From: a phage
Strand: one strand, 5' to 3'
DNA: 64,000 nucleotides
Sequence record: PZ168832.1
This document shows positions 2,549 through 46,420 of this stretch, in pieces; position 1 is the stretch's first letter; each line of letters begins with the position of its first letter. Under the pieces are notes generated by a model. The model worked only from the letters and a program-made list of their open reading frames with translations. It was not told the DNA's origin and did not search any database. The translations under genes were made by a program, and so were the position numbers.

Positions 2549-3733
2549 TTAACGCGCTTTCAAATCACGGTACACGGTCAGATTCTTCTTAGCACGGGTG
2601 ATAGCGGTGTACATCATCTTGGAGTACGGAACGCCGCGCAGGATTTCTTCCAGCACGCACACGTTGTCCCACTCGCTGCCTTGCGATTTGTGGACCGTGA
2701 TTACATAGCCATAGTCCATCCCGCCAACAGCGCGTTGAGCCTCTTTGCGCACTTCCTGATCAGTAGAGAAGGAAAGAGGATTAATCTTAACCTTTATATC
2801 TTTGCCATCGGTAAGCGAGCGCAAATTGACATACATGATTTCATTGGACTCGTCTTCGTCCCTTTCAAAGTCCGGCACTGGCTCATAGCTAATAACAATC
2901 CCTTGCTCGCCATTACAGAATCCTGGGCCGTGTTGGTTGAAGGTGCAAATAACCTTCTCGCCGATTCCTGGCATTGGCGTTATACGTCCGCTCACTTGCC
3001 GTAATAATGAATTCCATTTGTCTTTGGTGCTATTATAGGAGCAAATAATTTGATCATCTTCGCCCATGAATTTCTTCAATGCAGTAACGCGCGGCGATTC
3101 TGCCAACACTTTGACGTCATCATATTCACGCGGAGGAAGGCGGTTGCCTTGGCGCACGAAGAAGGAGGCGCGGATAATGTTGGACTCTTTCCCTTGCCGC
3201 ATGATTTCTGTTAACAGTACGTCAACGGCTTCTTCGGTAAAGTAGGCGGCGGCTTTTACCGGAGGGACTTGTCCAATGTCGCCTAATGCCAGGACAGGGA
3301 TGCGGTGATCAAGAAGGCGCTCTGTGTCCCACTCGCCAACCATCGACGCTTCATCGAGTACAACAAGGTGCGGCCTTTCATCCAGCTTTGACTTTCTCGA
3401 AAAGATTGGCTCATTGTCGTCATTTACGCCGCGCACGTTATAGATGAACTGGTGAAGGGTCTTAGCGCCACGACAGCCTTTTTGCTTTAATCGGCTTGCA
3501 GCCTTTCCGGTCGGCGCAATATAGATAGCGCCGTACTCACCGACACAGCGGCGCACAATCTCGCGAGCAATAGAGGTTTTACCAGTCCCTGCATAGCCAG
3601 CGATGAAAAACACGCGCTTCGTCGTTTTACCGTCCTGCAATCGCTTGTACCATGCAACGGCTTTCTCGATGGCGTCGATTTGTTGCGCGTTAAACTGAAT
3701 CACTGGCTCATCATTAAATTCTGGAATGTTCAT
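2549..3733 (-). CDS. dda: Dda/RecD-like SF1 DNA helicase
   Basis: Walker A GYAGTGKT, DEAS-like LVVLDEASM, C-terminal VITVHKSQGSEWD motif; 394 aa. Confidence 0.8.
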   Translation of the reverse strand: MNIPEFNDEPVIQFNAQQIDAIEKAVAWYKRLQDGKTTKRVFFIAGYAGTGKTSIAREIVRRCVGEYGAIYIAPTGKAASRLKQKGCRGAKTLHQFIYNVRGVNDDNEPIFSRKSKLDERPHLVVLDEASMVGEWDTERLLDHRIPVLALGDIGQVPPVKAAAYFTEEAVDVLLTEIMRQGKESNIIRASFFVRQGNRLPPREYDDVKVLAESPRVTALKKFMGEDDQIICSYNSTKDKWNSLLRQVSGRITPMPGIGEKVICTFNQHGPGFCNGEQGIVISYEPVPDFERDEDESNEIMYVNLRSLTDGKDIKVKINPLSFSTDQEVRKEAQRAVGGMDYGYVITVHKSQGSEWDNVCVLEEILRGVPYSKMMYTAITRAKKNLTVYRDLKAR

Positions 3734-4059
3734 TATAACTCCACTACGCTTTCAAGGTCCAGATATACTGGAATAAAATGGCAATCTTCTTTTCGTTCAA
3801 ACATCTCACCATCAACATGGCTGAAGAAAACAGTTGTGTTTGGTATCTTCCATCCTTTCTCGTCGCGCACTAAGTACGCCATGGATTCAACAGGGATGTA
3901 CAGCGATACCGGATTCGCGGCAAAAATAAATTTGATTCTGTCTGGTTGACCCAGGAATCGCATGATTGTTAGGCTTGAATTCAATCTTGTATTAAGGAAG
4001 GACTCAACGATTCCGACGTGTGTTGCACGCTCGCGTTGCTTCGTCTCTTTTTCGTTCAT
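3733..4059 (-). CDS. Hypothetical protein
   Basis: 108-aa ORF with AAGGT RBS; its stop overlaps the helicase start (TAATG), suggesting translational coupling. Confidence 0.5.
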   Translation of the reverse strand: MNEKETKQRERATHVGIVESFLNTRLNSSLTIMRFLGQPDRIKFIFAANPVSLYIPVESMAYLVRDEKGWKIPNTTVFFSHVDGEMFERKEDCHFIPVYLDLESVVEL

Positions 4060-4162
4060 TTCAGGCGACCTTTGTTAGTGCGGAAATATTTTTTGATAGT
4101 ATAATTGCAGATATAGTATAAAGCAAAGTAAATCGAAATTGTGAACTAAATGGTAAATATTG

Positions 4163-4190
4163 TTGACTTTGTATCACTCAATATTATACT
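4163..4190 (+). promoter_or_regulatory. Sigma70-like promoter upstream of the primase-polymerase gene
   Basis: TTGACT (4163-4168), 16-nt spacer, TATACT (4185-4190), in the divergent intergenic region. Confidence 0.45.
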
Positions 4191-4219
4191 GCAGGTATTG
4201 ATTACCGAAGGAAAGAAAG

Positions 4220-5302
4220 ATGGCTAGTTTAAGAGAAGAAGCAAAAATAATTGAAGAGTTTTTAACAGAACTCCAAAGAGGCATCCCAGAAGATGAGCGC
4301 GTCATGACGGTGTTTGCTCCTGAAGCAACGGTACAGACCGACGAGCGCGGCAAGAAGATCAACAGCAGCTTCTGGCCTAAGCCTTGGAAGTTGGGCAAGC
4401 CGCTCATGCAGCACCAAAACGGCTATGCGTGCATCAGTTCAATGCGTAAGTCTCCCAACCCAAAGACGGGTGAGATGCGATACTGGCGTACAGAGTCGGC
4501 CTTTGGTCACGGTATGGCGATGATGGTCGACGACATCGGCCACGGTAAAGGGTCCAAAGGCGATTTAGATTTGGAATTCTTTTTCGAGCGACTGAAGCCG
4601 ACTGTCATTGTCGAGACGTCACCGAACAACCACCAGCTTTGGTACTTCTTTAAAGAGCCGATTGACCATCTTATTCAGTTCAAAGCATTCCTTGGGTCTT
4701 TCGTAAACATGGTACTCAAGAAGGGCGGCGACAATACGATTAAAGACGTGACGCGCGTGGGCCGTGTTCCTGGGTGCATCAACAACAAGCGTGTGACTCA
4801 CGACGGCCCCTATAAATATGTCGATGAGAACGGCGACCCGTTCCGCTGCCGACTTGTCCATGCAGACTACTCCTTGCGCTACACCATCGAAGACATCTGT
4901 CAGGCATTTGGCTTTCACGTCGTTATGTCGCAAAAGCGTGAGATTCAAATTGACGTCGATGAATACAAGTACGATGCTGTTTGGTATAAAATAGCCCAGC
5001 AGATTCTAGCGCGCAACAAAATGGGTGAAGGGTCTGATGGCGACGTCATCGAGAACATGTCAGGCAAGTGCCGCATAATCTGTCCTTGGGGTGAAGAACA
5101 CACCAACGGCGACCCGTATGGCGCTTATTTTCGCGGCCCCATCCCTGGTGCTGAACATGAATTCGTTTTCGGTTGCGCTCACGACTGTCACCGGAAAGGG
5201 GAAGGCAAGAAAGGTTGGACCGCTTTTGTTGAAGCAGTAGTCATGCCTTATATTGAGAATCAACTTGATATGATAAATCGTCGCGCAGGTGGCATAAAAT
5301 AG
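4220..5302 (+). CDS. Primase-polymerase (archaeo-eukaryotic primase superfamily, Prim-Pol type)
   Basis: Motifs consistent with Prim-Pol: acidic MVDDIG, SPNNHQLWYF (sG.G.H-like), DVTRVGRVPGCINNK (D...R.PG..N.K); Cys/His-rich C-terminus. Confidence 0.6.
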   Translation: MASLREEAKIIEEFLTELQRGIPEDERVMTVFAPEATVQTDERGKKINSSFWPKPWKLGKPLMQHQNGYACISSMRKSPNPKTGEMRYWRTESAFGHGMAMMVDDIGHGKGSKGDLDLEFFFERLKPTVIVETSPNNHQLWYFFKEPIDHLIQFKAFLGSFVNMVLKKGGDNTIKDVTRVGRVPGCINNKRVTHDGPYKYVDENGDPFRCRLVHADYSLRYTIEDICQAFGFHVVMSQKREIQIDVDEYKYDAVWYKIAQQILARNKMGEGSDGDVIENMSGKCRIICPWGEEHTNGDPYGAYFRGPIPGAEHEFVFGCAHDCHRKGEGKKGWTAFVEAVVMPYIENQLDMINRRAGGIK

Positions 5303-5360
5303 TTTGCTTTTATTTTCATAGCAACTATAATCATTTTATGAACTGAAGCAGAGGTGATTT

Positions 5361-5507
5361 ATGCAAAGCGAAGAATTGAACATCGAGGTTGAATGTCTGT
5401 TAAAGTCGTTAGAACATAAACCAGTAGAGCTTCCGACCCTTCAAGGAGTCATGGCTCACCATCAAGCGGCTGCGGCCAAACACTACTCTGAATTTGTTAA
5501 GGAATAA
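5361..5507 (+). CDS. Small hypothetical protein (48 aa)
   Basis: GAGGTG RBS then ATG at 5361; below the ORF-track length cutoff; fills the gap before 5510. Confidence 0.3.
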   Translation: MQSEELNIEVECLLKSLEHKPVELPTLQGVMAHHQAAAAKHYSEFVKE

Positions 5508-5509
5508 AA

Positions 5510-5800
5510 ATGAACGAACCAAAAATGATGACCGTTGAAGAAGCGCAAAAGCTTCGTGTTGAAAACGAGCTTAAGCTTGTCAACCAGATTCTCCCCTTGT
5601 TTGCAGGCTACGCAGTGGAGGAAGTTGTTGGGGCAATCCTTAACGTATCCACACATGTCGCTATGAATCTTCAGGCCGAACGATTCAATACGCTGCTGAC
5701 TATTAAAAACCTTACGGTCAGTGCAACGTTCACCGTTGAGCCAGTCAATTTTGACGAAGCTGCAGCCGCGATTCAACAACAGCGAGATCAAGAGGTGTAG
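5510..5800 (+). CDS. Hypothetical protein
   Basis: 96-aa ORF in a coupled gene array. Confidence 0.5.
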   Translation: MNEPKMMTVEEAQKLRVENELKLVNQILPLFAGYAVEEVVGAILNVSTHVAMNLQAERFNTLLTIKNLTVSATFTVEPVNFDEAAAAIQQQRDQEV

Positions 5801-5801
5801 C

Positions 5802-6065
5802 ATGGGTGCTTTCCGTAACGAGTTCACCTGGAACGTTACCAGAAATCTCTCGACTTGTCCTAACTGTGCAAGCGATGTTATCAAGGTGCGGCAGCATCGC
5901 AACGCGGAGGAAGGTGCCTGGGAAGATGGCGACCTTGTAGAGTGCCAGTGCTGCTCTCATGAAGGCGTTGTGGAGCTTTACGCTGGCGAAGGTTGCCCAC
6001 CAGCAGAGCGCACAGCACGCGTTGAATGGGATGCAACAGACTCCATTGGTGATCCTCAACAGTAA
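5802..6065 (+). CDS. Cys-rich (zinc-ribbon-like) small protein
   Basis: AGAGGTG RBS then ATG at 5802; CPNC ... CQCCSHEG pattern. Confidence 0.5.
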   Translation: MGAFRNEFTWNVTRNLSTCPNCASDVIKVRQHRNAEEGAWEDGDLVECQCCSHEGVVELYAGEGCPPAERTARVEWDATDSIGDPQQ

Positions 6066-6083
6066 ATTTAGGTATAGATACTT

Positions 6084-6188
6084 ATGAAAGCCGTAAAGAA
6101 ATACACATTAATCATTTCCCTTGTCATCATCCTGGGGCTATTATATGTATTGGATATGGCATATTATTTGGCAGGGGTGAGTGGATGA
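6084..6188 (+). CDS. Small hydrophobic peptide (34 aa)
   Basis: MKAVKKYTLIISLVIILGLLYVLDMAYYLAGVSG; stop overlaps the next ATG (ATGA). Confidence 0.3.
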   Translation: MKAVKKYTLIISLVIILGLLYVLDMAYYLAGVSG

Positions 6189-6475
6189 ATATTGTAATTC
6201 TTTATGGTGAAAATATCAGCGATGACGACATCGAAGTTGCCGTTGATGTTTACGGTATCGATGAGGTGAAACGTGTTGAAGAAATTAGTGGCGCAAATCT
6301 CAATGAGATTGTCAAAGAAGCTGGCTGCCCTTCGGAAGAGATTCTGGTGGTTACTAACGATGACCTGTCTTCTATGGATCATTTGCGCCGCATCTTCACC
6401 GATTGCCAATACCTTCATGCTGTTCAATCAGTAAACAAATTGAGAAAGGCATACGCCAACCAATTTCCTTGCTGA
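6185..6475 (+). CDS. Hypothetical acidic protein
   Basis: 96-aa ORF. Confidence 0.5.
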   Translation: MNIVILYGENISDDDIEVAVDVYGIDEVKRVEEISGANLNEIVKEAGCPSEEILVVTNDDLSSMDHLRRIFTDCQYLHAVQSVNKLRKAYANQFPC

Positions 6476-6525
6476 TAGTTCACCAGTTATATTGCTTTAA
6501 ATTGAGTTTTACTATATTAATATAC

Positions 6526-6550
6526 AACGCCAGATTTCTGGCGTTTATTT
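6526..6550 (+). terminator. Rho-independent terminator
   Basis: Stem AACGCCAG/CTGGCGTT, loop ATTT, followed by a T-rich tract. Confidence 0.5.
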
Positions 6551-6611
6551 ACCGCACCCTGAAAGGATATATCCATGCAACAATATAACAAAGCCGTATC
6601 AGGAGGATTAA

Positions 6612-8282
6612 ATGTCAATTGAACATGACAATCTTCCAGAGGATACAGGTGATGAATTTGGTGCAATCTTTGACGAAATTCAAGACGCTGGTGTTTCAGA
6701 AGAAATGCAAGCAGCAGAGCAGCAAGGCACCAGAGCTAAAATAAGCCTTCAGCACAAGGCTGTTGAGAAAGATGCAGAGCGCATGGAATGCTACGGTGAA
6801 GAAGACTTGGTTGAAAGGGCACGTTTGCTCGCCTCACTTCAGGTAATCAAGTTCCCTCACTATAAACCGACGAAAGATGATTTTGTTCTTCAGGCGGACC
6901 GGACGAGTGACATGAACCGTTATGCGGTTTTCGACGCGTTGTTTGATAAGGGAAGCGGCGTTGTTCCATTCCCTCACAAAGATACTTTTCGTGGGCGCTT
7001 AGTCGACCATCGCGGCGAAACATTCACCGACCGGACGTTGGAAGTCACAGAGATAGTTGCCGCTGTCGACGCAGCAGGCCTGTCCAACCCAAACTCACGG
7101 CAGGTCGCTCAATCCTATAAGGAATGGGCCATGCGTTATCAGCGCGACGACCTGATGGACTTCTTCTACAAGAAGCTGCCTGAATGGGACGGTACTGCGC
7201 GCATTGAGAAATACCTTATCGAGCTATTCCGACCGTTCGATACAGAGTTAAACCGACAAATCGGTGTGTATTTTTGGCTATCGCTCTATAACCGCCTGAC
7301 CAACCCTGGCTGTCAAGCGCCAATATCCATTGCGCTCATCGGCGGCCAGAACGCAGGGAAGAGTTATTTTAGTAAGCTGCTTTGCGAAGCTATTATGAAC
7401 GACCGCCACGCAACACCGATTCCGTTGAACTTGGCCGCGCAAAACTTCAACCCGTTCTTGCGAGCTATTACGGGTCGCTCAATTATCGCGAACGTTGGCG
7501 AGATGACAGGCTTTAAAAAGGCCGACATCGAAAACATGAAAGCATTCCTGACTAAGACGGAAGATGACCTGGACTTCAAATTTGAAGACACGCAGGTTAA
7601 ACCACGCCAGTGGATTGCGATCATGGACGGCAACGAATACGCAGGCATGCAGCGTGACGACACGGGCAACCGTCGTGTTTACCCTATCTTTGTTGGCCAA
7701 CTTGCTGACAAGGACGGGCAACCGAACTGGTCTAAAGACTTCCAAGCTGACCTTTCCACTTTGAAAGAAGATGTTTGGCAGCTTATGGCTGAGTGCGCTG
7801 CGTGGATGGAGAAGCACGGCGAAGCAGGTTACAACGCCTTTGTTGGTGAAACGTCTCGTATGCTTACTGAGTTCAGCAAGAATGAAATGGAACGCGCTCG
7901 CGGCGTTATCCGTGATGAGATGGTCGACAACGACCTTGTTGAAGTCGTCATTACTGCGCCTTATGACCGACATCACAGCGGACGCTGGCACATCACCAGT
8001 GGTGCAATCGCTATGGGATTCAGAGCTAAGTGCGGCAAGTCGCCTTTCTCACGTACCCTTGCGCCGCACATGTCGAAACTTGGATTTGAGCCTGCAACCT
8101 ATCGCAACCAGCGTGGTTACTTTACGCCGCTGATTAAGAATGAAGCAGGGGAATACATTTCTGACTTGATGACTATCTTGGCGTATCTTATCCGCGACGA
8201 GTCTGACCCTGAAGATATTGAATTCTTGAAGAAGGTTATTGAACGCAAACGTTCTTTAGGAAGAGATAAGGATGAATTCTGA
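6612..8282 (+). CDS. Primase-associated P-loop helicase (VirE / D5-like, SF3-type)
   Basis: Walker A GGQNAGKSYFSKLL; 556 aa; sits downstream of the Prim-Pol gene, giving a split primase-helicase arrangement. Confidence 0.6.
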   Translation: MSIEHDNLPEDTGDEFGAIFDEIQDAGVSEEMQAAEQQGTRAKISLQHKAVEKDAERMECYGEEDLVERARLLASLQVIKFPHYKPTKDDFVLQADRTSDMNRYAVFDALFDKGSGVVPFPHKDTFRGRLVDHRGETFTDRTLEVTEIVAAVDAAGLSNPNSRQVAQSYKEWAMRYQRDDLMDFFYKKLPEWDGTARIEKYLIELFRPFDTELNRQIGVYFWLSLYNRLTNPGCQAPISIALIGGQNAGKSYFSKLLCEAIMNDRHATPIPLNLAAQNFNPFLRAITGRSIIANVGEMTGFKKADIENMKAFLTKTEDDLDFKFEDTQVKPRQWIAIMDGNEYAGMQRDDTGNRRVYPIFVGQLADKDGQPNWSKDFQADLSTLKEDVWQLMAECAAWMEKHGEAGYNAFVGETSRMLTEFSKNEMERARGVIRDEMVDNDLVEVVITAPYDRHHSGRWHITSGAIAMGFRAKCGKSPFSRTLAPHMSKLGFEPATYRNQRGYFTPLIKNEAGEYISDLMTILAYLIRDESDPEDIEFLKKVIERKRSLGRDKDEF

Positions 8283-8929
8283 TGAATAAAGCAATCAACA
8301 TCGCTAAATTCTTTCAAAATCTCGGTGAACTGAACAAAGAGAGTGACGTTCACGGAGAAGAAATGAACCGGATGATTTCAACCGTGTTGCGTGGTTTTGG
8401 GTACGATAAGGACTCCATCAACTGTAAGCGCACGAAGCTTGTCGATGAGACATACCTTTACTACGTTGAATTGCGCGTAGGGAAAGAGTTGATGATCATC
8501 GACCCTAAATTGGAAGGGGCGCACTGTTTTGGCGCTCACCCTCGTGCGAGTGAATTCAAGGGTCGCGGTCGCAACCGACTCCAGAAGCTTGATGATGCAG
8601 GCGACTTGAACATCTCGATGTTCCTCAAAGAGTTCCTTGCGCTGCCGAAGGTTGCATCCTCAACGGGCCGTGATGACCTGTGCAAGATTGGATTCAGAAC
8701 TAAAGATTTGCGCAATGCGCTACGCAAGAAGGGATTTGTACCTTCTTATGATAACGTCGCCGCGCTGATGGCTTCCATGGAGGAAGCTGAAGCAATGGAT
8801 AAAGTGCGCGGCTATTTCCTGAATACAGGCTACACAATGTATGAGTGGCACACCAAAGGATTGACTGTCGCCGACTTCATCTATTCATTAGAGCAGAAGT
8901 ATGTACGCAATATGCAGGCCACAGGATAA
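8282..8929 (+). CDS. Hypothetical protein
   Basis: 215-aa ORF, start overlaps upstream stop. Confidence 0.55.
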   Translation: MNKAINIAKFFQNLGELNKESDVHGEEMNRMISTVLRGFGYDKDSINCKRTKLVDETYLYYVELRVGKELMIIDPKLEGAHCFGAHPRASEFKGRGRNRLQKLDDAGDLNISMFLKEFLALPKVASSTGRDDLCKIGFRTKDLRNALRKKGFVPSYDNVAALMASMEEAEAMDKVRGYFLNTGYTMYEWHTKGLTVADFIYSLEQKYVRNMQATG

Positions 8930-8968
8930 TTATCATCAAAATATTTGCTTTTCTGACGAGGTGATATT

Positions 8969-9193
8969 ATGATTAACTTAGACAGGATTGAGTTAGCACT
9001 TAGTACCTTAATCAAATATTACCAGTTTGCTTTTAAGGCTAGTTTGTTCGGCTTGTTCAATCCTCATCAAGCAGCAAAGGCGCGAAGCAATGCCAACCGC
9101 CTGCGCTGTACTGGTATAGTTATCCACGACCGGATATTGACAGAGGGTAGATTCAGCCATGAATACACAAGGGAGAATAACAAATCAACGTAG
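8969..9193 (+). CDS. Hypothetical protein
   Basis: GAGGTGA RBS then ATG. Confidence 0.4.
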   Translation: MINLDRIELALSTLIKYYQFAFKASLFGLFNPHQAAKARSNANRLRCTGIVIHDRILTEGRFSHEYTRENNKST

Positions 9194-9368
9194 GGCTTTA
9201 CAAGTCCTCATCCACTACCTGTCACGCCTTTATCCAACGGCGCACGAGCAGAATCCATCAACGGGTCACCTGTTTAAGCGCCGTAACCTTTCGTTAAAAA
9301 CATTTGCTTTAATCCAATATGACCGCTACCTGGACGGGCGCTACTGCGGCCCGAAGGATTCTCTATGA
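9159..9368 (+). CDS. Hypothetical protein (doubtful)
   Basis: Overlaps the previous ORF by 35 nt; no clear RBS. Confidence 0.25.
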   Translation: MNTQGRITNQRRALQVLIHYLSRLYPTAHEQNPSTGHLFKRRNLSLKTFALIQYDRYLDGRYCGPKDSL

Positions 9369-9643
9369 TTACTACATACAAAGTATTCTTTGTCAAGTGC
9401 ACATCATCTATTGATGACCAATTTACTGCTGGCAAGAATTATCCCGTGATTTCTGAGTCAAGGCTAGATATAATCTTGAACGATCATGAAATCTATGAGC
9501 CGATGCCAGCGACTGCGTTTGATGTTATCGGTCATGTTCGGATTAAGACGAATGTTGAAACGATGCATGACCCGTTGTTCAAGAAGCAAATCAAGAATGC
9601 CATGCAAGACTTTTGCGCGGCCATGTTTAAATATTATAAGTGA
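9365..9643 (+). CDS. Hypothetical protein
   Basis: 92-aa ORF. Confidence 0.45.
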   Translation: MITTYKVFFVKCTSSIDDQFTAGKNYPVISESRLDIILNDHEIYEPMPATAFDVIGHVRIKTNVETMHDPLFKKQIKNAMQDFCAAMFKYYK

Positions 9644-9650
9644 GTTGAAG

Positions 9651-9872
9651 ATGAGCAAGAAAACCCTTAAGGCTGGCGACCGTATCCGTTGGGTGTCAGG
9701 ACAGCATATGCGCGCAGGCACCATCCTTGAGCTGGATGAATACCTTACCGATTCGCGCGGTCGCAATCATTACCGTGTAAGAATCGATACAGTAAAAGAA
9801 GATGACAAGTCACTGGTTGGTGAAGTCGTCATCGTAACTCCACGTCAAATCAAGGCGGCTTGTGAAGCATGA
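9651..9872 (+). CDS. Hypothetical protein
   Basis: In-frame ATG at 9651 within ORF-track entry 9486..9872. Confidence 0.45.
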   Translation: MSKKTLKAGDRIRWVSGQHMRAGTILELDEYLTDSRGRNHYRVRIDTVKEDDKSLVGEVVIVTPRQIKAACEA

Positions 9873-10024
9873 ATAAATATCAATTTAGCGATAATAAAAT
9901 CAGTAAGGCAGATGCAATCAAGCAGCTTCGCCGCGTACTTGAAGCCAGCGGCCATACGAAAGAGCGCGCACGCGTCCTGGCCAAAGAGCATTATAAACGT
10001 TTTGTGTCACAAATCAGAGGTTGA
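9869..10024 (+). CDS. Small hypothetical protein (51 aa)
   Basis: ATGA overlap with the upstream stop; below ORF-track cutoff. Confidence 0.3.
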   Translation: MNKYQFSDNKISKADAIKQLRRVLEASGHTKERARVLAKEHYKRFVSQIRG

Positions 10025-10026
10025 CC

Positions 10027-10374
10027 ATGGCTCATGTTAAAGACGAAGTGTTGTATGGCGCAGAAATTAAGAAGCGCGTGCGTGAGATGGCTTCCGGTGG
10101 CACGCTGCTGCCGCCGCGCGTTCGATGCGACCATGTGATTGGCGTATCCGGCACGAAAGAGATGGGTGTGTTGGTAAAAGACATTCGCGTTGGCGATGTC
10201 ATGGTCATAGACCGACAAGCACGCGTCGTTATCCAGGTGCAACCGAACGATGATGAAGGCTGTGTTCTATTGAAGCTGAAGAAGCTTTCATCCAGCCCAG
10301 CGAAGGCCGTCATCAAGAAGGTGTGGCCCGAAGGATTACGCAAACTCATTCGTCGACCCGTGGAGAATGTATAA
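10027..10374 (+). CDS. Hypothetical protein
   Basis: GAGGT RBS then ATG at 10027 (track start 10021 is TTG). Confidence 0.5.
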   Translation: MAHVKDEVLYGAEIKKRVREMASGGTLLPPRVRCDHVIGVSGTKEMGVLVKDIRVGDVMVIDRQARVVIQVQPNDDEGCVLLKLKKLSSSPAKAVIKKVWPEGLRKLIRRPVENV

Positions 10375-13614: not shown

Positions 13615-13955
13615 TGGAAGAGCAAGAAGGTCGTGAGCTAACGTTCGACGAGCAAATGAAAGAGCTTCAGCGCACATCGCCGCTGCGCGGTAAGATTGTT
13701 GACATCGAGGCGAGCGAATCCAATCTCACCCAGTGGCGGCTCAAGTGCACCAGCACAAGCAAGGATATGTTAAGCTTCAAAGTCGGTCATACTTATTTGC
13801 TTTATGAGGCAAAAGGACTTATTATTGATGGAAGGCAAATTGTCTTCACCGTCGTCAACGGCATGCGTTGGTTCGTGAAGCGTGATGTCGAGGGCCGTGA
13901 CATGTTTGTCGCAGGCTTTCTAGAAACAAGATTCCAATTGGAGAAGGTTAAATGA
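13614..13955 (+). CDS. Hypothetical protein
   Basis: 113-aa ORF. Confidence 0.5.
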   Translation: MEEQEGRELTFDEQMKELQRTSPLRGKIVDIEASESNLTQWRLKCTSTSKDMLSFKVGHTYLLYEAKGLIIDGRQIVFTVVNGMRWFVKRDVEGRDMFVAGFLETRFQLEKVK

Positions 13956-15194: not shown

Positions 15195-15643
15195 TGGGTA
15201 AAAAGCTTATCGCCGCTGGTTGGGCCATCCCGAAGTGGGCTCATCGTGCGCACTACTTTGATGAAGGAGAAGTGCAAAGCCTTTGTGGTCGCGCAACTTA
15301 TTTCGGTGATGAGCGCGTCAGCGGCGATTACATCGACTCGCTTTTAGGCAAAGGTGATTGCAAGAAATGTCAGGATATATTAAGAGATATTCTTACGCAA
15401 AGAGGATTGCTTGAGCTTGATGAATCGGAGGAAGTAATTGAACTTAAGCTTGAAGCGAATTACCTTATTTATACGTTCAAGAACTATTACGCAACTAATA
15501 TGCGCTCAAAAATGAGCGAGGAAGTAATAGAAAAGGTGTTCACCTACAATCCGCTAAGGATGAATAAAACTAAATTGAAGAAGTTTAATATAATGTTAAG
15601 GAAAGAATTTAAAAGGCTTGGAGTGAAGAATTTTATATTTTAA
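15194..15643 (+). CDS. Hypothetical protein
   Basis: AGGAGG RBS then ATG at 15194; last gene before a strong terminator. Confidence 0.5.
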   Translation: MGKKLIAAGWAIPKWAHRAHYFDEGEVQSLCGRATYFGDERVSGDYIDSLLGKGDCKKCQDILRDILTQRGLLELDESEEVIELKLEANYLIYTFKNYYATNMRSKMSEEVIEKVFTYNPLRMNKTKLKKFNIMLRKEFKRLGVKNFIF

Positions 15644-15660
15644 TAGTGATTAATGTTAAG

Positions 15661-15684
15661 AGGGCCGATTGGCCCTTTTTGTTT
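15661..15684 (+). terminator. Rho-independent terminator ending the plus-strand early array
   Basis: AGGGCC-GATT-GGCCCT hairpin followed by TTTTTGTTTG. Confidence 0.6.
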
Positions 15685-15798
15685 GCCTGTGGAATGTGAG
15701 GCTTTTGTGGTTATTTACGATTCAAGGCTGTAATTTAAGAGAGCGAAAATATTATAATAATTTATCAAGATTATTGCATATTGTGGCAATCAACGTTT

Positions 15799-16499
15799 AT
15801 ACGTATTTATGACAGTTTAATCCACTAAATAATACGGATAGAACAGTGAGGAAAATACAGCGGTGTATTTTAGTGTAAATATTGAATCAAAAATAAATAA
15901 TTATGGTGCTATTATATACGCAGATTGTTTGTAATTTATAGGATATTTTATCGTGGAGTATTGGCTAACGGTGCGTTAGCCGTGGGTCTTGGTGCTTGTG
16001 GTGTTGATGCTCAGAATTTTAATAATGTTTTAGTTTTAGTAATCGTAGTCAATGATGATACGTATAAGAAAATGAGAGTCACCCCTTCACAGGATATTGT
16101 ACCGTGGCCCTGTGGTGCGCCGCGCCTGGGATTGCTGGTATACACTGGTGCTATTTTGCCGCGAAGGCAGTCATTCATACGTATCATGACGTATCATTGG
16201 GCTATTGATTTATAAGGAAAAATACGCTGATACGGATGATACGGGTGCAAACATAATATATATAGAATTCCAGAAAATTAATTAACTCCATTTTGAATTA
16301 ATTTAAATTAATTTTTTTCTACATCCTCATACTTATACTAAACTTATATTTATACGTATCATCCGTAAGATATAAGTAAAAACAAAGACTTGCGGCAATA
16401 CGGATGATACGTCATGATACGCTTCAACCAGCCATCTGCGGCTAAGTCATTGATTTGCATAACAAGCGGCGAAAGGGATGGATTTCTTTTATACGTATC
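15799..16499. repeat. Iteron cluster A: 9-10-bp CGTATCATC / GATGATACG units in both orientations around an AT-rich core
   Basis: Units at about 16057-16065, 16176-16200, 16229-16245, 16353-16369, 16398-16422, 16491-16499; AT-rich core 16261-16316; 8-bp palindrome GGCTAACG..CGTTAGCC at 15962-15980. Confidence 0.6.
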
Positions 16500-16635
16500 A
16501 AACAGTACACCACGCACCACGGTCCGCAATCCACGCAGCATTATGATTTGTGTACATTTATAGCCATAATGAACATCAATCTGCACTTGAATATAATGTC
16601 CATCCATTGTATAATTCACACTATTAATTTGCACT

Positions 16636-17124
16636 ATGGGATTTTGCACTATGAGTCAAGACTATGTAGCGATGCCTGAAGACTTTGAAGACCCGCGATT
16701 TGCAGAGCACAATCAGGCTTTATTCGATGAGTTCATTGACCTTGTTATTCAGGGCCATGACATGCGCGCAGCTTTTGCACTAGTATTTGGAATGGAAGTT
16801 GCAACGGATAACTACACTGGACAGCGAATCCTTTGCGCGCAACGCAACCCATACTACAAAATGCGCTTCAAAAAGCGTATGGAAGAGATGCCACTCAAGG
16901 ATTTGTGGAGCGTAAAAGGTGCAATTCACAATTTGGTTAAGCTTGTGCGTGATCCAGAAGTCGCGGCGTCAGCCAAGCTTAATGCTATTCGCGAACTGAA
17001 TATCATCTACGGCATCACGATGATTGATGAAAACGGCAATAGTAAAATGGGCCGTTCCATGGACGATTTCTACAAGGATTTTGGAGAGGCAGCCAAAGAA
17101 GGCGAGCAATTCTCCCGCCACTAG
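16636..17124 (+). CDS. Terminase small-subunit-like DNA-binding protein (tentative)
   Basis: N-terminal FDEFIDLVIQGHDMRAAFALVFG and QRNPYYKMR resemble the small-terminase HTH pattern (F..EY..d.n...AA..AGYS ... LL.NP.V), by recall only. Alternative starts at 16651 and 16672. Confidence 0.4.
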   Translation: MGFCTMSQDYVAMPEDFEDPRFAEHNQALFDEFIDLVIQGHDMRAAFALVFGMEVATDNYTGQRILCAQRNPYYKMRFKKRMEEMPLKDLWSVKGAIHNLVKLVRDPEVAASAKLNAIRELNIIYGITMIDENGNSKMGRSMDDFYKDFGEAAKEGEQFSRH

Positions 17125-17142
17125 CCAATTTGCACTATAAAA

Positions 17143-17178
17143 CGGCCCTAGAACACATCTTCTCCACTTCTAGGGCCG
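17143..17178 (+). other. 11-bp perfect inverted repeat (stem-loop) just after the terminase-small-like gene
   Basis: CGGCCCTAGAA, 14-nt loop, TTCTAGGGCCG; no T-tract follows. Confidence 0.3.
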
Positions 17179-17523
17179 TCGGTAATACGACGGGGAAGGT
17201 TGCAACCGTAAACGCGTTAGAAAGTGTATTATTATAAGTCATCTTTTAGTCACCTTACGTAACAATTTACGACCTTCAGCCGTCCAATCGAACGACTCCA
17301 CCAGCAGATTCGCACTATAACCTAAGATGATGCGCCCTTTCTCGTTATCGACCCGCCAACAAGTCTCGAATAGCATTCGATTTGCACTATTAACTATCGC
17401 CGCAACGCGCGTAGGGTAAACGCAATTTGCACTATGGTCATAAAGGGATAAGGTGCGACCACTTCCGATGGACAACGTAGCGATGAGAATGAGCGTATTC
17501 ATAAGCCACCAATTTGCACTATG

Positions 17524-17546
17524 AAAAGCGACCCCGAAGGGCCGCC
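17524..17546 (-). terminator. Rho-independent terminator ending the minus-strand arm of the cassette
   Basis: On minus strand GGCGGCCC-TTCG-GGGTCGC (7-bp stem with one G-U, TTCG tetraloop) followed by TTTT. Confidence 0.45.
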
Positions 17547-17552
17547 ATTCGA

Positions 17553-18179
17553 TTAGATAATCTGGAAGGTGTAGGACTTGTTGCCGAACTCGAAGTTCAA
17601 GCGCCCAGCTTCCTTAAGCTTCATGCGGAAGCGAATATGTTTGCTATCCGGTAAGCCCAGCGCGGCGAACGCTACGCGGACCGATTTGAACTCTCCTACA
17701 CCCTCGACCATAACGCCGTTACGGGTAAGACGCTTTTGCGCCACTTCCTTATTATCCCAACTTTTTGCAATGCCTTCGCTATTCGAACGGCGATGGGAAG
17801 GAGTTCCGTTTTGCACTACGCAATTTGCACTATCGTTTAAACCGCTCTTAACGAAGGCTTCATACTCTTCGTCGGTCATCGCGTCGAGTTCTTCCTGCGT
17901 CGGCTCGGCCTTTTTAACGACCGCACGCGCCTTATGCGTTTTTACATCGCTGGACACTTCCTCGCGCGGCTTCGCGTCGGGGATGGGCGATTCGTTGGAC
18001 GGCTCATCGAGCGCGTTTAAGGACTCGATTAACGCGATTACGCGAGTCTCGGCGGTCCGGCGGTCCGAAAACTTCTTAATCGGTTTTGAGCCGGAATTTG
18101 CATTATAGAATGCAACGAGGTCGGCGGTCTTAGTTGCGATAACGTCGCCGCTAGTCGAGAAGCGATTTAAGCTAACCAT
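17553..18179 (-). CDS. Hypothetical protein (208 aa), cassette gene
   Basis: Strong third-position bias with abundant CGC/TCG/GCG/TTA codons unlike the rest of the window; the antisense ORF 17578..18108 is Ser-rich low complexity. Confidence 0.55.
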   Translation of the reverse strand: MVSLNRFSTSGDVIATKTADLVAFYNANSGSKPIKKFSDRRTAETRVIALIESLNALDEPSNESPIPDAKPREEVSSDVKTHKARAVVKKAEPTQEELDAMTDEEYEAFVKSGLNDSANCVVQNGTPSHRRSNSEGIAKSWDNKEVAQKRLTRNGVMVEGVGEFKSVRVAFAALGLPDSKHIRFRMKLKEAGRLNFEFGNKSYTFQII

Positions 18180-25845: not shown

Positions 25846-25922
25846 GAAAAGATCACCCTTTATCCACTACTAAGCTGGAATCATAATTTTACTTGATATA
25901 GCTGTCGCAAGCAAACTATAAT

Positions 25923-28039: not shown

Positions 28040-28201
28040 TTCAATCTCCTTTCGTTTGGTTAACTAAAATATAACTCAAAATGATACAAAAGCAAAATAT
28101 TTTATGAACTATTTATGATTACTATACATATCATTTGCTTACAAACACATGAATATTTATAATATAGATTGATTCCCTTTCACTGTCAGGTGGCGTTAAC
28201 A

Positions 28202-30578: not shown

Positions 30579-31430
30579 ATGGCTTTTAAAGCTTCGAAAA
30601 AACGTGAACGCCGCTCACCCGATAGAATCGGACGCGGCAGTCCGATAATCCCATCAAACGCTATTGCGATGGCCTACCGTCGTGAGATGAAAGGTCTTTG
30701 CTATGCGATGATTGATGACTATCAGGCAGGCATTTCAGAATGGCTTGACAAGAAGCAGGTGCAGAAGTTTTTTGCGCAAGACTCTGCTGATTCGACATTC
30801 CAGACCCTTATGAAACGGCTGCAACTGAAATGGGCAAAGGCGTTTGCACGTGTTGGGTCGAAGATTGCCGCTGATTTTATCAAATCGGTCGAAAAGGGTG
30901 CCACTTCTGCTACATTCGCAAGCCTTAAGTCCGCAGGCATAGAAGCGCCAAAGGCCACATATAACAAATTCGTTGAGAACACTCTTAGAACAAGCGAGAA
31001 GTTTAACACGACTCTAGTGACTAAGGTCGGCGAGGATATTCACAACAGGGTGTACGAAGCGGTGATGCTTTCGCTGACTTCGCCAGACCCAGCACAGCAA
31101 GGCGCATCCGGCATTCAGGCGGCATTAAGAAATGTCAAACACTTCTCTGCAAAACGCGTAGACCTTATCGCCAAAGACCAAACGAGCAAACTTTATTGCG
31201 TATTAAGTGATGAAAGGATGCGACAGAATGGCGTGGAGGAATTTGAGTGGGCGCATTCAGGAGCAGGCAAAGAGCCGCGAATATCACATGAGCACGTCGA
31301 CGGCATGAGATTCAAGCTTGATGACAAACGCTTATGGGAAGTAGGTGGAGAACTTAAGTTCAAAAAGGGTGACATCGGTCCTCCTGGATGGGCAATACAC
31401 TGCAAGTGCAGAAAAATACCAATTATCTGA
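30579..31430 (+). CDS. Head morphogenesis protein (Mu gpF / SPP1 gp7-like)
   Basis: C-terminal HEHVDGM ... PPGWAIHCKCRKIPI, characteristic of this family. Confidence 0.7.
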   Translation: MAFKASKKRERRSPDRIGRGSPIIPSNAIAMAYRREMKGLCYAMIDDYQAGISEWLDKKQVQKFFAQDSADSTFQTLMKRLQLKWAKAFARVGSKIAADFIKSVEKGATSATFASLKSAGIEAPKATYNKFVENTLRTSEKFNTTLVTKVGEDIHNRVYEAVMLSLTSPDPAQQGASGIQAALRNVKHFSAKRVDLIAKDQTSKLYCVLSDERMRQNGVEEFEWAHSGAGKEPRISHEHVDGMRFKLDDKRLWEVGGELKFKKGDIGPPGWAIHCKCRKIPII

Positions 31431-31502
31431 ATTAAGATAGTTGTAAATAAGCGCAATTTAAACTGTGCAATTATTAATTTGATATGAACTAAAGAGGAAG
31501 TT

Positions 31503-31640
31503 ATGCAAAAGATTATTCAGTCACGTTATGTTAAAGTGCGAAATATTAATTGCAACTCTTTGCTTTCTTGGAAATGGGCTGTTTATGACTCAATGCTGAT
31601 TGGCGTTTTAGTTGCTGGAGTGCTTTTTAATATTCACTGA
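31503..31640 (+). CDS. Small hydrophobic peptide (45 aa)
   Basis: AGAGGA RBS then ATG; hydrophobic C-terminus MLIGVLVAGVLF. Confidence 0.3.
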   Translation: MQKIIQSRYVKVRNINCNSLLSWKWAVYDSMLIGVLVAGVLFNIH

Positions 31641-31672
31641 ATCGCCTGGCAATGGATTGCCGCAGGATTTCA

Positions 31673-31950
31673 CGCGTATAATGACGTATCATCCGTATCA
31701 AGTAAGTAGTTGTTTTCAAAAGAATCTTACGGATGATACGGATGATACGCGTTGCCGCGATACTTTATAGGAATTCAAATAAATTAATTTAAAATTATAT
31801 ATCTAATTTAATTTTATTTTTTTATAAACTCTTATATATGAAAAGTATCCGTATCATCCGTATCATCCGTAGCACACCAGTGATAGCGCGGCTTATACAC
31901 CGATACGGATAAAAATACGCCTCATTTTATCCGTATCATCCGTATCACAC
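31673..31950. repeat. Iteron cluster B: same 9-bp CGTATCATC / GATGATACG units and a homologous AT-rich core
   Basis: Units at 31681-31700, 31727-31750, 31845-31873, 31901-31920, 31925-31950; AT-rich core 31767-31824 shares TATAG(G)AATTC and AATTAATTTAAA with cluster A. Confidence 0.6.
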
Positions 31951-32062
31951 TAATTAAGGCGCGGCTATATCGGTTGTTATACATATTCAAACCATAATTA
32001 TTGTTTGCCTAAGTTTTTTTCATTAGATATAATACACAATACTTATTTGAGGGTGGATGCGA

Positions 32063-46362: not shown

Positions 46363-46373
46363 AATATTGCTTA

Positions 46374-46420
46374 TAGACTCCTTATAGATTATAATTTGTT
46401 GATCAGATATAAGGAGTCTA
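46374..46420 (+). promoter_or_regulatory. 13-bp perfect inverted repeat pairing with the RBS of the next gene
   Basis: TAGACTCCTTATA (46374-46386) and TATAAGGAGTCTA (46408-46420); the second arm contains AAGGAG just before ATG 46420; spacer contains TATAAT. Confidence 0.35.

Follow-up and report, generated by a model that had tools for sequence, protein, structure and literature searches.

Does the separation of a primase-polymerase (Prim-Pol) gene and a VirE-type helicase gene by about 1.3 kb of small genes mean that a primase-helicase has been split, and does a zinc-ribbon protein encoded between the two complete the primase? Both ideas had been put forward in an earlier note on a stretch of phage DNA of 64,000 nucleotides (PZ168832.1), referred to here as the window. 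The window comes from a Wifcevirus myophage with 96-97% nucleotide identity to published Wifcevirus genomes, in which the two genes are 99% identical and both already annotated as ‘DNA primase’; the module is therefore already known, as an ordinary annotated replication module of Wifcevirus phages of Escherichia coli. In our view, the region is probably (at a rough probability of 0.8) a conserved replication-initiation and priming module, made up of two proteins that are always encoded by separate genes in the clade, with an accessory cassette between them, and the interpretation given in the earlier note is partly supported.

The first gene (4220..5302, + strand) encodes a 360-aa RepB'-like archaeo-eukaryotic primase (AEP). 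Residues 40-229 match the Pfam family RepB_primase (PF16793; E 5.5e-36, 124.6 bits, cut-off 24.3 bits), and the full-length protein matches phrog_4861 (‘DNA primase’; E 4e-197). After the AEP catalytic domain (about residues 40-229, nt 4337-4906) come a helix, a putative zinc finger and a C-terminal helix that is conserved, and the best Foldseek matches of the AF2 model (pLDDT 86.4) are S-2L PrimPol (6zp9, 1e-7) and RepB' (3h20/3h25; 1e-6, 1e-5). D104-D105, S134..Q139 and D171/D176 are invariant, and the corresponding DD, S..Q and D motifs are intact in 119-120 of the 120 listed homologues. Glutamine in motif II is typical of RepB'-like enzymes (PMC5862659), and the phage primase agrees. RSF1010 RepB' (PDB 3H20/3H25) shares with it PF16793, the AEP fold and the Gln replacing His in motif II, and is likewise a stand-alone primase with a separately encoded hexameric helicase partner (RepA). 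The two differ in that RepB' carries a C-terminal PriCT-1 domain (PMC5862659) in place of the CHC2-type zinc finger and helix found here, and in that RepA belongs to the RecA-type helicase family (the class of RepA-type helicases in PMC5862659); full-length sequence similarity to the RepB' PDB chains is marginal (E 0.04-0.7).

The putative zinc finger of the primase (5081..5191, + strand), a Cys-His-Cys-Cys/His motif recognised from the alignment, motif counts in homologues and the AF2 model, involves C288, H294, C319, H321 and C323/H324. The first four of these residues are invariant in the primase alignment, and the pattern C-x5-H-x24-C-x-H-x(1-2)-C/H is nearly universal (119 of 120 listed homologue clusters). 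The order and spacing of its ligands are similar to those of the UL52-like CHC2 finger in human PrimPol, with C-x5-H-x24-C-x4-C here and C419, H426, C446 and C451 there (PMC4027207). As in human PrimPol and herpesvirus UL52, the Cys-His-Cys-Cys order lies C-terminal to the AEP domain, but the likeness extends only to the pattern and the predicted secondary structure (three short β-strands and a helix, pLDDT 71-93): the fourth ligand is shifted in the window primase (CAHDCH rather than CGHDTC), and no sequence-profile match was found. The finger of human PrimPol binds single-stranded DNA and is essential for priming (PMC4027207).

The second gene (6612..8282, + strand) encodes a 556-aa VirE/VapE-type SF3 (AAA+) helicase, with a match to VapE-like_dom (PF05272; E 1.6e-28, 100.1 bits, cut-off 25 bits) at residues 189-407, a full-length match to phrog_4630 (‘DNA primase’; E 4e-255) and a PDB sequence match to 7pds (E 4e-11). 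The identities and positions proposed for both enzymes were thus borne out by Pfam, PHROGs and Foldseek; the family assignments hold, and neither protein was placed in an unrelated family by the Pfam and PHROGs searches. The helicase begins with disordered acidic residues 1-27, a long helix and an N-terminal domain (about 30-190), followed by the ATPase (189-407, nt 7176-7832), another long helix and a domain (about 436-504, nt 7917-8123) that is predicted, solely from the secondary-structure pattern of the model, to be winged-helix-like. It ends in a flexible tail with Phe556 as the last residue; a C-terminal Phe is present in 115 of the 120 listed helicases. The AF2 model (pLDDT 83.3) matches SaPI1 Rep1 best (7pds; E 3e-16, 480 aligned columns, TM 0.61 on the target), followed by the helicase modules of NrS-1, ASFV, poxvirus D5/E5 and SaPI5 (E 1e-6 to 1e-5).

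The same phage encodes a DnaE-like polymerase, an RNase T-like exonuclease, SNF2 and Dda-like helicases and a ligase. The presence of two further helicase-family proteins, together with the annotation of the VirE-type gene in Escherichia phage vB_EcoM_WFC, which cites COG5545 (‘Predicted P-loop ATPase and inactivated derivatives’), would fit a model in which the VirE-type protein acts as an ATPase for origin binding or loading, or is a derivative that has lost activity, and the Dda-like or SNF2-type enzyme unwinds the fork. We regard this as unlikely. The Walker A residues (G244-Q246-G249-K250-S251), the Walker B glutamate (E297), the sensor asparagine (N341), R348-D349 and the GNRR arginines (G352-N353-R354-R355) are invariant or almost so, with Walker A present in 119 and GNRR in all 120 of the listed homologues, and a genuine hexameric helicase, SaPI1 Rep1, is the nearest protein with a solved structure. 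Replication is not the usual task of SF1 Dda-type and SNF2 enzymes, which normally act as accessory helicases.

With regard to the two-gene state, the earlier note was right that the genes are separate, but not in the implied breaking apart of a fused gene. All 120 listed clusters of primase homologues are stand-alone proteins of 340-407 aa with PF16793 only, and all 120 listed clusters of helicase homologues are stand-alone proteins of 450-693 aa with PF05272 (three also with PF19263). Since all 240 listed clusters, which span Pbunavirus, Wifcevirus and related genera, are stand-alone, the two genes were separate ancestrally in the clade, and what varies is only their spacing. The helicase gene lies downstream of the primase gene on the same strand in every related locus with enough sequence, at distances of -4, 2, 11 and 15 bp, 338 bp in Pbunavirus, 1309 bp in Wifcevirus and 5.8-8.5 kb, the longest gaps holding 15-18 ORFs; in six lineages no more than 85 bp separate the two genes. 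The cargo is unrelated between lineages, and no significant Pfam families were found in the gap cargo of related loci. Spacing that ranges from -4 bp to 8.5 kb marks the junction as an insertion hotspot for accessory genes and not as the site of a recent split.

A recent fission, in which an ancestral fused primase-helicase was broken here by insertion of mobile DNA, is therefore highly improbable. Fused AEP-VirE proteins are common elsewhere, AEP-helicase fusions being noted as frequent (PMC4889955; PMC5862659), and PHROG families of fused primase-helicases match the helicase with their C-terminal halves. Yet no fused homologue is found among the 240 closest clusters listed, both proteins are full length with termini conserved across the clade, the two-gene state is common to at least nine phage genera, the RepB' family is described as being without helicase fusions (PMC5862659), and the gap cargo showed no transposase or homing-endonuclease domains. 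On the upstream side of the primase gene, the divergent Dda-like (RecD/SF1) helicase gene (2549..3733, - strand; Pfam AAA_30, AAA_19 and UvrD_C_2; phrog_325 ‘Dda-like helicase’) is conserved next to the module: in a tblastn-type comparison, almost all related loci have a homologue (48-65% identity) upstream, on the opposite strand. The divergent intergenic region contains a sigma-70-like match (4163..4190, + strand; TTGACT-16-TATACT, 10/12 positions in a consensus scan), a promoter candidate by consensus only. Pbunavirus (PB1-like) genomes, with a 64% identical primase and a 44% identical helicase, share with Wifcevirus the gene order, the Dda-like neighbour and the double ‘DNA primase’ annotation; only the cargo differs: Pbunavirus has a single membrane ORF of 61 aa and Carpasina has none, against five ORFs here.

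As the earlier note had it, five small genes and a terminator-like hairpin occupy the interval, which measures 1309 bp; the five + strand ORFs have Shine-Dalgarno sequences and are annotated as gp075-gp079 in the RefSeq entry for WFC. A tentative promoter-like motif (5304..5331, + strand; TTGCTT-N16-TATAAT, from a pattern scan) lies 2 nt past the primase stop codon, ahead of the cassette. The general pattern TTGCTT-N14-18-TAWWWT occurs 10 times in the window against 0.96 expected (0 of 100 shuffles reach 10). In a close relative (L065), which has a different cassette, this copy is missing and an extra gene of 164 aa overlaps the primase stop codon. Gene 1 (5361..5507, + strand, 48 aa; gp075) is lineage-specific and only 31% identical in L065, and gene 2 (5510..5800, + strand, 96 aa; gp076) is 43% identical; neither has a Pfam, PHROG or NCBIfam match. 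Gene 4 (6084..6188, + strand; gp078), missing in L065, encodes a predicted single-pass membrane peptide of 34 aa, whose hydrophobic sequence, read off the nucleotide sequence, is MKAVKKYTLIISLVIILGLLYVLDMAYYLAGVSG. Gene 5 (6185..6475, + strand, 96 aa; gp079), which is 56% identical in L065 (dN/dS about 0.33), is alone among the cassette genes in having a detectable homologue in Pantoea phage Kyle, located between Kyle's primase and helicase genes (47% identity, tblastn).

The cassette is closed by an intrinsic-terminator-like element (6526..6551, + strand), also annotated as a terminator in WFC, which consists of a hairpin (6526-6545) with an 8-bp stem, AACGCCAG-AUUU-CUGGCGUU, and AUUU loop, followed by UAUUUA. 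The hairpin is real as a structure (-12.4 kcal/mol, z = -4.76; 0 of 200 shuffles as stable) and is a predicted terminator; a simple consensus scan did not pick it up, owing to its interrupted U-tract. In L065, whose helicase is only 75% identical, the stem is kept and the loop changed. A second promoter-like motif (6492..6518, + strand; TTGCTT-N15-TATATT, pattern scan) lies directly upstream of the hairpin, and were it to act as a promoter, the 5' end of the helicase mRNA would lie at about the first base of the hairpin.

The remaining cassette gene (5802..6065, + strand; gp077) is the zinc-ribbon gene that the earlier note had recognised; its stand-alone product of 87 aa contains two CxxC pairs (CPNC...CQCC) and weakly matches phrog_4446 (unknown function) and, below threshold, Zn_Ribbon_YjdM. 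It is 75% identical to its L065 counterpart at the amino-acid level despite saturated synonymous sites (pN 0.16, pS 0.77), so the gene is under purifying selection, and as its pN is close to that of the helicase (0.17), implying about equally slow evolution, the protein does something useful in its lineage. Sequence alone leaves room for a lineage-specific replication role. Selection, the CxxC pairs and the position between the two replication genes would also suit a zinc-binding subunit that has become detached and complements the primase in trans, as had been suggested, but this is very unlikely. The protein is confined to Wifcevirus and the phages closest to it (two clusters in a search of 5.8 billion proteins, three representatives in an exhaustive search of 1.84 billion, and no tblastn match beyond Wifcevirus among related loci), is never a domain of a larger primase and does not significantly match any primase zinc-domain family. 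In relatives whose primases are 52-64% identical, the primase and helicase genes abut or overlap and the zinc-ribbon protein is lacking, small zinc ribbons in the long gaps of other lineages are sporadic and of unrelated types, and a conserved CHC(C/H) motif is present in the primase itself.

Among the closest known systems is the Staphylococcus aureus pathogenicity island SaPI1. It has a separate pri gene upstream of rep, which encodes a VapE-like SF3 helicase; Pri co-purifies with Rep1 (PMC9371898), and Rep1 is a self-loading initiator-helicase (PMC9371898; PDB 7PDS). As Rep1 is the best sequence and structural match to the phage helicase, albeit at only about 17% structural-alignment identity, the two-gene layout is of a known kind. 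SaPI1 differs in having an iteron origin directly downstream of rep; in the window no non-coding iteron region directly 3' of the helicase gene was found, a protein-coding gene being located there, and five genes and a predicted terminator separate primase and helicase. Two iteron and AT-rich origin-like elements are located elsewhere in the window. The fused SaPI5 PriRep5, NrS-1 primase-helicase, ASFV C962R and poxvirus D5/E5 follow the same logic of an AEP primase combined with an SF3 helicase, but in one polypeptide, in contrast to the two genes here and in the whole clade.

No biochemical study of the clade's primase or helicase was found in the literature searched, and we therefore infer priming, unwinding, hexamer formation and primase-helicase contact by homology (14-17% structural-alignment identity). 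In the proposed model, the SaPI-Rep1-like SF3 helicase would, by analogy, assemble as a hexamer and unwind DNA, and may also recognise the origin via its predicted C-terminal winged-helix domain. The RepB'-like primase would engage the single-stranded template with its own C-terminal CHC2-type zinc finger and make primers, which would be extended by the phage DnaE-type Pol III alpha and epsilon-like exonuclease. Primase and helicase are expected to associate non-covalently, like SaPI1 Pri and Rep1, and the 1.3 kb interval would stand outside the replication machine, as a cassette, specific to this lineage, in which five small accessory genes are followed by a predicted terminator.

Over the 4.5 kb around the primase-helicase module, the window shares 94-97% nucleotide identity with 29 published Wifcevirus genomes, among them those of Escherichia phages AV128, vB_EcoM_WFC (WFC), ECML-117 and FEC19 and of the BASEL isolates Bas98-101, and the gene content over the whole window agrees with that of the 66-72 kb Wifcevirus myophages, so that annotated relatives can be used for its interpretation. 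Rfam and tRNA scans of the whole window gave no matches. The RepB'-like primase gene (4220-5302, plus strand, 360 aa) ends with a stop codon at 5300-5302, and the VirE/VapE-type helicase gene (6612-8282, plus strand, 556 aa) starts 1309 bp and five plus-strand ORFs further downstream; for both proteins, annotated database entries with 99% identity already exist. For this pair, our analyses establish intact catalytic motifs, predicted folds, a stand-alone architecture and conserved synteny. An earlier note had placed a Prim-Pol and a VirE-type helicase at these positions, in separate genes about 1.3 kb apart with five small ORFs, including a zinc-ribbon gene, and a terminator between them. The ORF positions, the protein families (PF16793 and PF05272, both above curated cut-offs), the gene layout and the terminator were all confirmed, whereas the two interpretations placed on them, that the zinc ribbon could act as a primase domain and that the module is ‘split’, do not stand.

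The primase matches the Pfam family RepB_primase (PF16793) over residues 40-229, with 124.6 bits against a cut-off of 24.3 (E 5.5e-36), and phrog_4861 of PHROGs from end to end. Its homologues form 179 clusters, and in the best 120 of these 179, on which the statistics are based, the proteins are 340-407 aa long and have PF16793 as their sole domain. They stem from Wifcevirus, Pantoea phage Kyle, Pbunavirus (294 Pseudomonas phage records) and phages of Serratia, Erwinia, Burkholderia, Xanthomonas and Luteibacter, with 52-73% identity to the window protein. The AEP motifs I (D104-D105), II (S134..Q139) and III (D171/D176) are invariant in a diverse 24-member alignment of primase homologues (A1) and are found in 119-120 of the 120 listed clusters; glutamine in place of histidine in motif II is a hallmark of RepB'- and PolpTN2-like enzymes (PMC5862659). 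The AlphaFold (AF2) model (pLDDT 86.4) shows the AEP catalytic fold, and its only strong PDB matches in Foldseek, each with a probability of 1.00, are the cyanophage S-2L PrimPol 6zp9 (1e-7) and the RSF1010 RepB' structures 3h20 (1e-6) and 3h25 (1e-5). PDB searches with the sequence or a profile returned marginal RepB' matches only (E 0.04-0.7).

The C-terminal region of the primase gave no PriCT match in Pfam at E <= 0.1, as would be found for the PriCT-1 domain of RepB', and is modelled as a helix, three short strands with a Cys/His motif and a further helix, the motif being carried on the strands and a helix. C288, H294, C319 and H321 are invariant in A1 and are accompanied by C323/H324, position 324 being a cysteine in most homologues, and the pattern C-x5-H-x24-C-x-H-x(1-2)-C/H recurs in 119 of the 120 listed clusters. 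The order and spacing of these ligands parallel those of the UL52-like CHC2 finger of human PrimPol (C419, H426, C446, C451), a finger that binds both ssDNA and zinc and that priming depends on (PMC4027207). Since Pfam and PDB searches with sequence and profile detected no profile-level similarity to the UL52/PrimPol zinc finger, this is a resemblance by pattern and not membership of the family. The finger is followed by a conserved amphipathic helix, in which W333, F336, D338, P343, I345, L349 and N353 are invariant or nearly so in A1, and by a variable tail that ends the protein. A primase that needs a zinc element in trans is very unlikely, given that 119 of the 120 listed homologues carry these Cys/His residues of their own.

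The proposal of the earlier note that a zinc-ribbon protein encoded between the two genes could supply the primase zinc-binding domain concerns the 87-aa product of the third small ORF (5802-6065), which does contain a zinc ribbon (CPNC...CQCC). This ORF is a genuine gene, because 75% amino acid identity to the protein of L065, a close relative (Logan contig SRR26188688_3650), is kept while synonymous sites are saturated (pN 0.16, pS 0.77), much as in the helicase gene. Outside Wifcevirus, no tblastn match was found in 57 related loci; a word-indexed search of 5.8 billion proteins returned two clusters, and an exhaustive search of 1.84 billion representatives returned three matches, namely stand-alone proteins of 84 and 76 aa and a low-complexity repeat protein, which we read as spurious. 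The protein weakly matches PHROG 4446 (function unknown), and its sole Pfam match, to Zn_Ribbon_YjdM, is below threshold (14.9 bits against 30.8). Pfam, PHROGs and NCBIfam gave no match to a primase zinc-domain family, NCBIfam giving no match for any of the nine proteins tested. Moreover, the gene is absent wherever the primase and helicase genes are neighbours. With its restricted spread, the lack of a family match and the finger of the primase itself, the 87-aa protein is very unlikely to be a zinc subunit in trans; for early small proteins of this kind, one would by default expect a role in regulation or directed at the host that is specific to the lineage.

The second protein of the module is a helicase and probably an initiator too. 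It matches VapE-like_dom (PF05272) over residues 189-407, with 100.1 bits against a cut-off of 25 (E 1.6e-28), and phrog_4630 from end to end. Among its 228 homologue clusters, the best 120, which again provide the statistics, are 450-693 aa long and contain PF05272, three of them together with PF19263. The Walker A motif (G244-x-Q246-x-x-G249-K250-S251), E297 at the VGEM Walker B position, N341, R348-D349 and G352-N353-R354-R355 are invariant in the alignment of helicase homologues (A2), Walker A being found in 119 and GNRR in all of the 120 listed clusters. The ATPase is therefore intact, and on the evidence of its Walker A/B, sensor and arginine residues the protein would not be an ‘inactivated derivative’. 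Its sole PDB sequence match is 7pds (E 4e-11), the complex of SaPI1 Rep1 with DNA; Rep proteins are self-loading initiator-helicases whose C-terminal winged helix binds iterons (PMC9371898). The AlphaFold model (pLDDT 83.3) resembles Rep1 over nearly the whole chain (Foldseek against the 7pds chains, E 3e-16 to 2.5e-14, 477-486 aligned columns, TM 0.59-0.61 on the target) and has the three tiers of Rep1, an N-terminal domain, an ATPase and a putative C-terminal DNA-binding domain. The helicase modules of NrS-1, ASFV C962R, poxvirus D5/E5 and SaPI5 PriRep5 are weaker matches.

In the model, the helicase begins with a disordered acidic stretch, followed by a long helix and the N-terminal domain (about 30-190), in which R69, N102, P121 and D132 are invariant. 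C-terminal of the ATPase lie a 44-residue helix, a unit of helix-strand-helix-helix-strand-strand topology (436-504), which as modelled is compatible with a winged helix, two further helices and a disordered tail. The tail (residues 552-556, window 8265-8279) reads DKDEF here and GGGF in many homologues, and a C-terminal phenylalanine stands behind a Gly/Asp-rich, low-confidence tail in 115 of the 120 listed clusters. The C-terminal phenylalanine of T7 gp4, T7 gp2.5 and the SSB tip docks partner proteins, and by analogy the helicase tail looks like a docking peptide of this kind.

Both genes were located in each of 57 related loci from IMG/VR and GenBank records. Wherever enough sequence is available, the helicase gene lies 3' of the primase gene on the same strand, and a divergently transcribed gene for a Dda-like helicase lies upstream in nearly every locus. 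Six lineages have a spacing of 85 bp or less between the two genes (-4, 2, 11, 15, 74 and 85 bp, the 11 bp being those of Xanthomonas phage Carpasina). In Pbunavirus the gap is 338 bp long and contains a single 61-aa membrane ORF, and in Wifcevirus it measures 1309 bp. Other lineages, Pantoea phage Kyle and Burkholderia phage BcepF1 among them, have gaps of 2.3-3.3 kb, whereas those of Serratia MTx, Erwinia TropicalSun and two metagenomic lineages reach 5.8-8.5 kb and hold 15-18 ORFs. The genes in the gap are unrelated from lineage to lineage, except for one 96-aa protein common to the window and Kyle. Even in L065, with a primase 89% and a helicase 75% identical to those of the window, the cassette differs: a 164-aa gene is added and the 34-aa gene is lacking. 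Ten of the largest gap proteins of other lineages showed no Pfam domain above the curated threshold, and with no homing endonucleases or transposases among them, insertion by mobile elements at the junction was rejected.

A fused bifunctional primase-helicase of the D5/E5, C962R, PriRep5 or pRN1 ORF904 type was likewise dismissed, as the window has two separate ORFs. No fused RepB'-VirE protein was found among 240 listed homologue clusters. The RepB' family has been described as being without helicase fusions (PMC5862659), and VirE domains are often fused to AEP families other than RepB' (PMC5862659, PMC4889955). The conserved gene order, the variable gap and the lack of fusions therefore identify, on comparative grounds, two separate genes as the ancestral state, some of them abutting with overlapping stop and start codons; as the separate genes are ancestral and have no fused homologue in the 240 clusters, the word ‘split’ is not appropriate. 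By the same comparison, the junction is a hotspot at which small accessory genes are inserted, the Wifcevirus cassette being one filling of it.

Small hydrophobic membrane peptides recur in the gap of different lineages. The 61-aa ORF of Pbunavirus SN (6050-6235 of that locus, L005) reads as two hydrophobic, membrane-spanning stretches, and the 34-aa ORF of the window (6084-6188) encodes a predicted single-pass membrane peptide; no sequence similarity was detected between the two. In addition, L065 encodes a Macro-domain protein (9666-10292) among the small early genes 3' of the helicase gene, which could be of the ADP-ribosylation-reversing, anti-defence type.

The five small ORFs of the window (5361-5507, 5510-5800, 5802-6065, 6084-6188 and 6185-6475, all on the plus strand) correspond to gp075-gp079 of the RefSeq phage WFC. 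Shine-Dalgarno sequences are clear for four of them and weak for the 34-aa ORF, and a sixth ORF of 39 aa in the Bas101 annotation, which overlaps the terminator, is probably spurious. The hairpin at 6526-6545, an 8-bp GC-rich stem followed by UAUUUA, has a predicted energy of -12.4 kcal/mol (z = -4.76 against shuffles), is annotated as a terminator in WFC and is kept in L065, whose helicase is only 75% identical. With its hairpin and U-rich tract it is, as judged from sequence and folding, a predicted intrinsic (Rho-independent) terminator, the efficiency of which is uncertain because the U-tract is interrupted. The consensus terminator scan did not list this hairpin; folding with shuffles confirmed it.

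The motif TTGCTT-N14-18-TAWWWT has 10 matches in the window against 0.96 expected, a roughly tenfold excess reached by none of 100 shuffles, and may be the phage's preferred -35/-10 promoter form. Sites lie at 5304-5331, 6492-6518, 8945-8970, 13797-13825, 28135-28163 and 46367-46395 and, on the minus strand, at 417-442, 25886-25914 and 28066-28095. One match (8945-8970), possibly a fortuitous one, overlaps with a ribosome-binding site and a start codon, and L065 lacks the site at 5304, for which reasons we do not claim the motif as a proven promoter. A TTGCTT-N16-TATAAT sequence 2 nt 3' of the primase stop codon opens the cassette and the terminator closes it, whilst the match at 6492-6518 lies just 5' of the hairpin, such that its transcript would start at about the first hairpin base. 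By this layout, transcription of the helicase gene may be independent of that of the cassette.

In SaPIs, rep is preceded by the primase gene and directly followed by the origin (PMC9371898). In contrast to the iterons directly after rep in that layout, the window has a coding gene there (8282-8929), which overlaps the helicase stop codon and is without repeats, and a repeat search of 3700-9500 found no iterons near the module; a SaPI-type iteron origin directly 3' of the helicase gene was therefore rejected for the window, where iteron-like elements lie elsewhere. A 99-nt tandem repeat at 1964-2152 (1.9 copies, 78% matches) is coding low-complexity sequence inside a minus-strand gene for a 281-aa protein that is labelled ‘TolA protein’ or hypothetical in relatives.

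Downstream of the helicase gene come about 7.4 kb of small plus-strand genes and then the first non-coding gap (15643-16636); in the element at 16170-16500 within this gap, 9-bp repeats surround a 100-bp AT-rich core. This architecture recurs in a cleaner copy at 31680-31950, in the non-coding gap 31430-32057, and on sequence the two elements are paralogous. Both consist of the 9-bp repeat CGTATCATC, with the core ATCCGTATC and the variants ATACGTATC and TGACGTATC, arranged on both strands in tandem pairs or triples that flank a very AT-rich core of 70-100 bp. With up to one mismatch, ATCCGTATC occurs 22 times in the window against 10.6 expected; all eight exact copies are inside the two elements, seven of them at 31691-31946, and each of the four Wifcevirus genomes of IMG/VR has the tandem 16-mer at the two sites. 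By their repeat architecture the elements look like replication origins, possibly for the Rep1-like helicase; they could instead be packaging sites of the pac or cos type or sites bound by a regulator.

With regard to origins, several relatives have non-coding, repeat-bearing or gene-poor DNA directly 3' of the helicase gene, the position of the SaPI origin, as in the related loci L006 (8351-8462), L046 (11959-12312), L034 (16264-16290), L062 (13651-13678) and L005 (8139-9104). In Carpasina an 11-nt unit is repeated eight times after the helicase gene, L046 has eight copies of TACGTCAAT from 6 bp past the helicase stop codon, BcepF1 and L062 have 9-nt repeat units and Pbunavirus SN has about 960 bp of gene-poor non-coding DNA. 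The 162-aa product of the window gene at 16636-17124, a member of phrog_4783 (function unknown), shares 41% identity with gp77 of Pbunavirus SN (E 3e-41), and each gene lies just 3' of a non-coding gap; the two gaps are therefore positional homologues, that of Wifcevirus being separated from the helicase gene by the small genes. The same region holds nine copies of the 9-mer TTTGCACTA / TAGTGCAAA within 1.2 kb (16628-17824), a cluster that spans this gene and the divergent intergenic region 17124-17553 and may represent operator-like sites.

In the proposed model, the VirE-type protein would, by homology, form a hexameric SF3 helicase, possibly one that, like SaPI Rep1, loads itself at an origin via the C-terminal domain. 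The RepB'-like primase would hold ssDNA and the initiating nucleotide with its zinc finger in cis and make primers, to be extended by a DnaE-type (C-family) Pol III alpha (60486-63383, minus strand; PF07733, PF17657 and a weak PHP match) with an RNase T/epsilon-like 3'-5' exonuclease, encoded by a separate gene directly upstream (63383-63925, minus strand). Dda-like and SNF2-type helicases and an ATP-dependent ligase may assist. Primase and helicase presumably associate non-covalently, candidate contacts being the conserved C-terminal helix of the primase and the N-terminal domain and tail of the helicase. A more specific combination of these ideas, which we consider unlikely, would make the helicase a Rep1-like self-loading initiator whose winged helix binds CGTATCATC iterons flanking AT-rich cores at two origins (about 16.17-16.50 kb and 31.68-31.95 kb), and whose Phe tail, in place of a fusion, recruits the separately encoded primase or the DnaE-type polymerase. 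Such a docking tail would account for the ability of the clade to do without a covalent fusion of primase and helicase, and the junction would tolerate accessory genes because the proteins assemble post-translationally.

The layout of the module is of a known kind, in which only the cargo of the gap varies. A separate primase gene 5' of a VapE-type helicase gene has already been characterized in SaPI1, where Pri co-purifies with Rep1, and SaPI5 has a pri-rep fusion (PMC9371898). RSF1010 likewise combines a stand-alone RepB'-type primase with a separate helicase, but its RepB' has a C-terminal PriCT-1 domain where the window primase has a Cys/His finger. Both genes and their separate state are already present in every published Wifcevirus and Pbunavirus annotation, and, as nothing departs from the known kind, we rate the finding as already known. 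For annotators, it follows that the VirE-type gene is not a second ‘DNA primase’ and that the zinc-ribbon ORF is not to be taken for the gene of a primase subunit. The clade is therapeutically important, with Pbunavirus phages in wide use against P. aeruginosa, and the junction, as a variable slot for accessory genes, is a sensible place to search for genes of host takeover or anti-defence and can safely receive engineered insertions.
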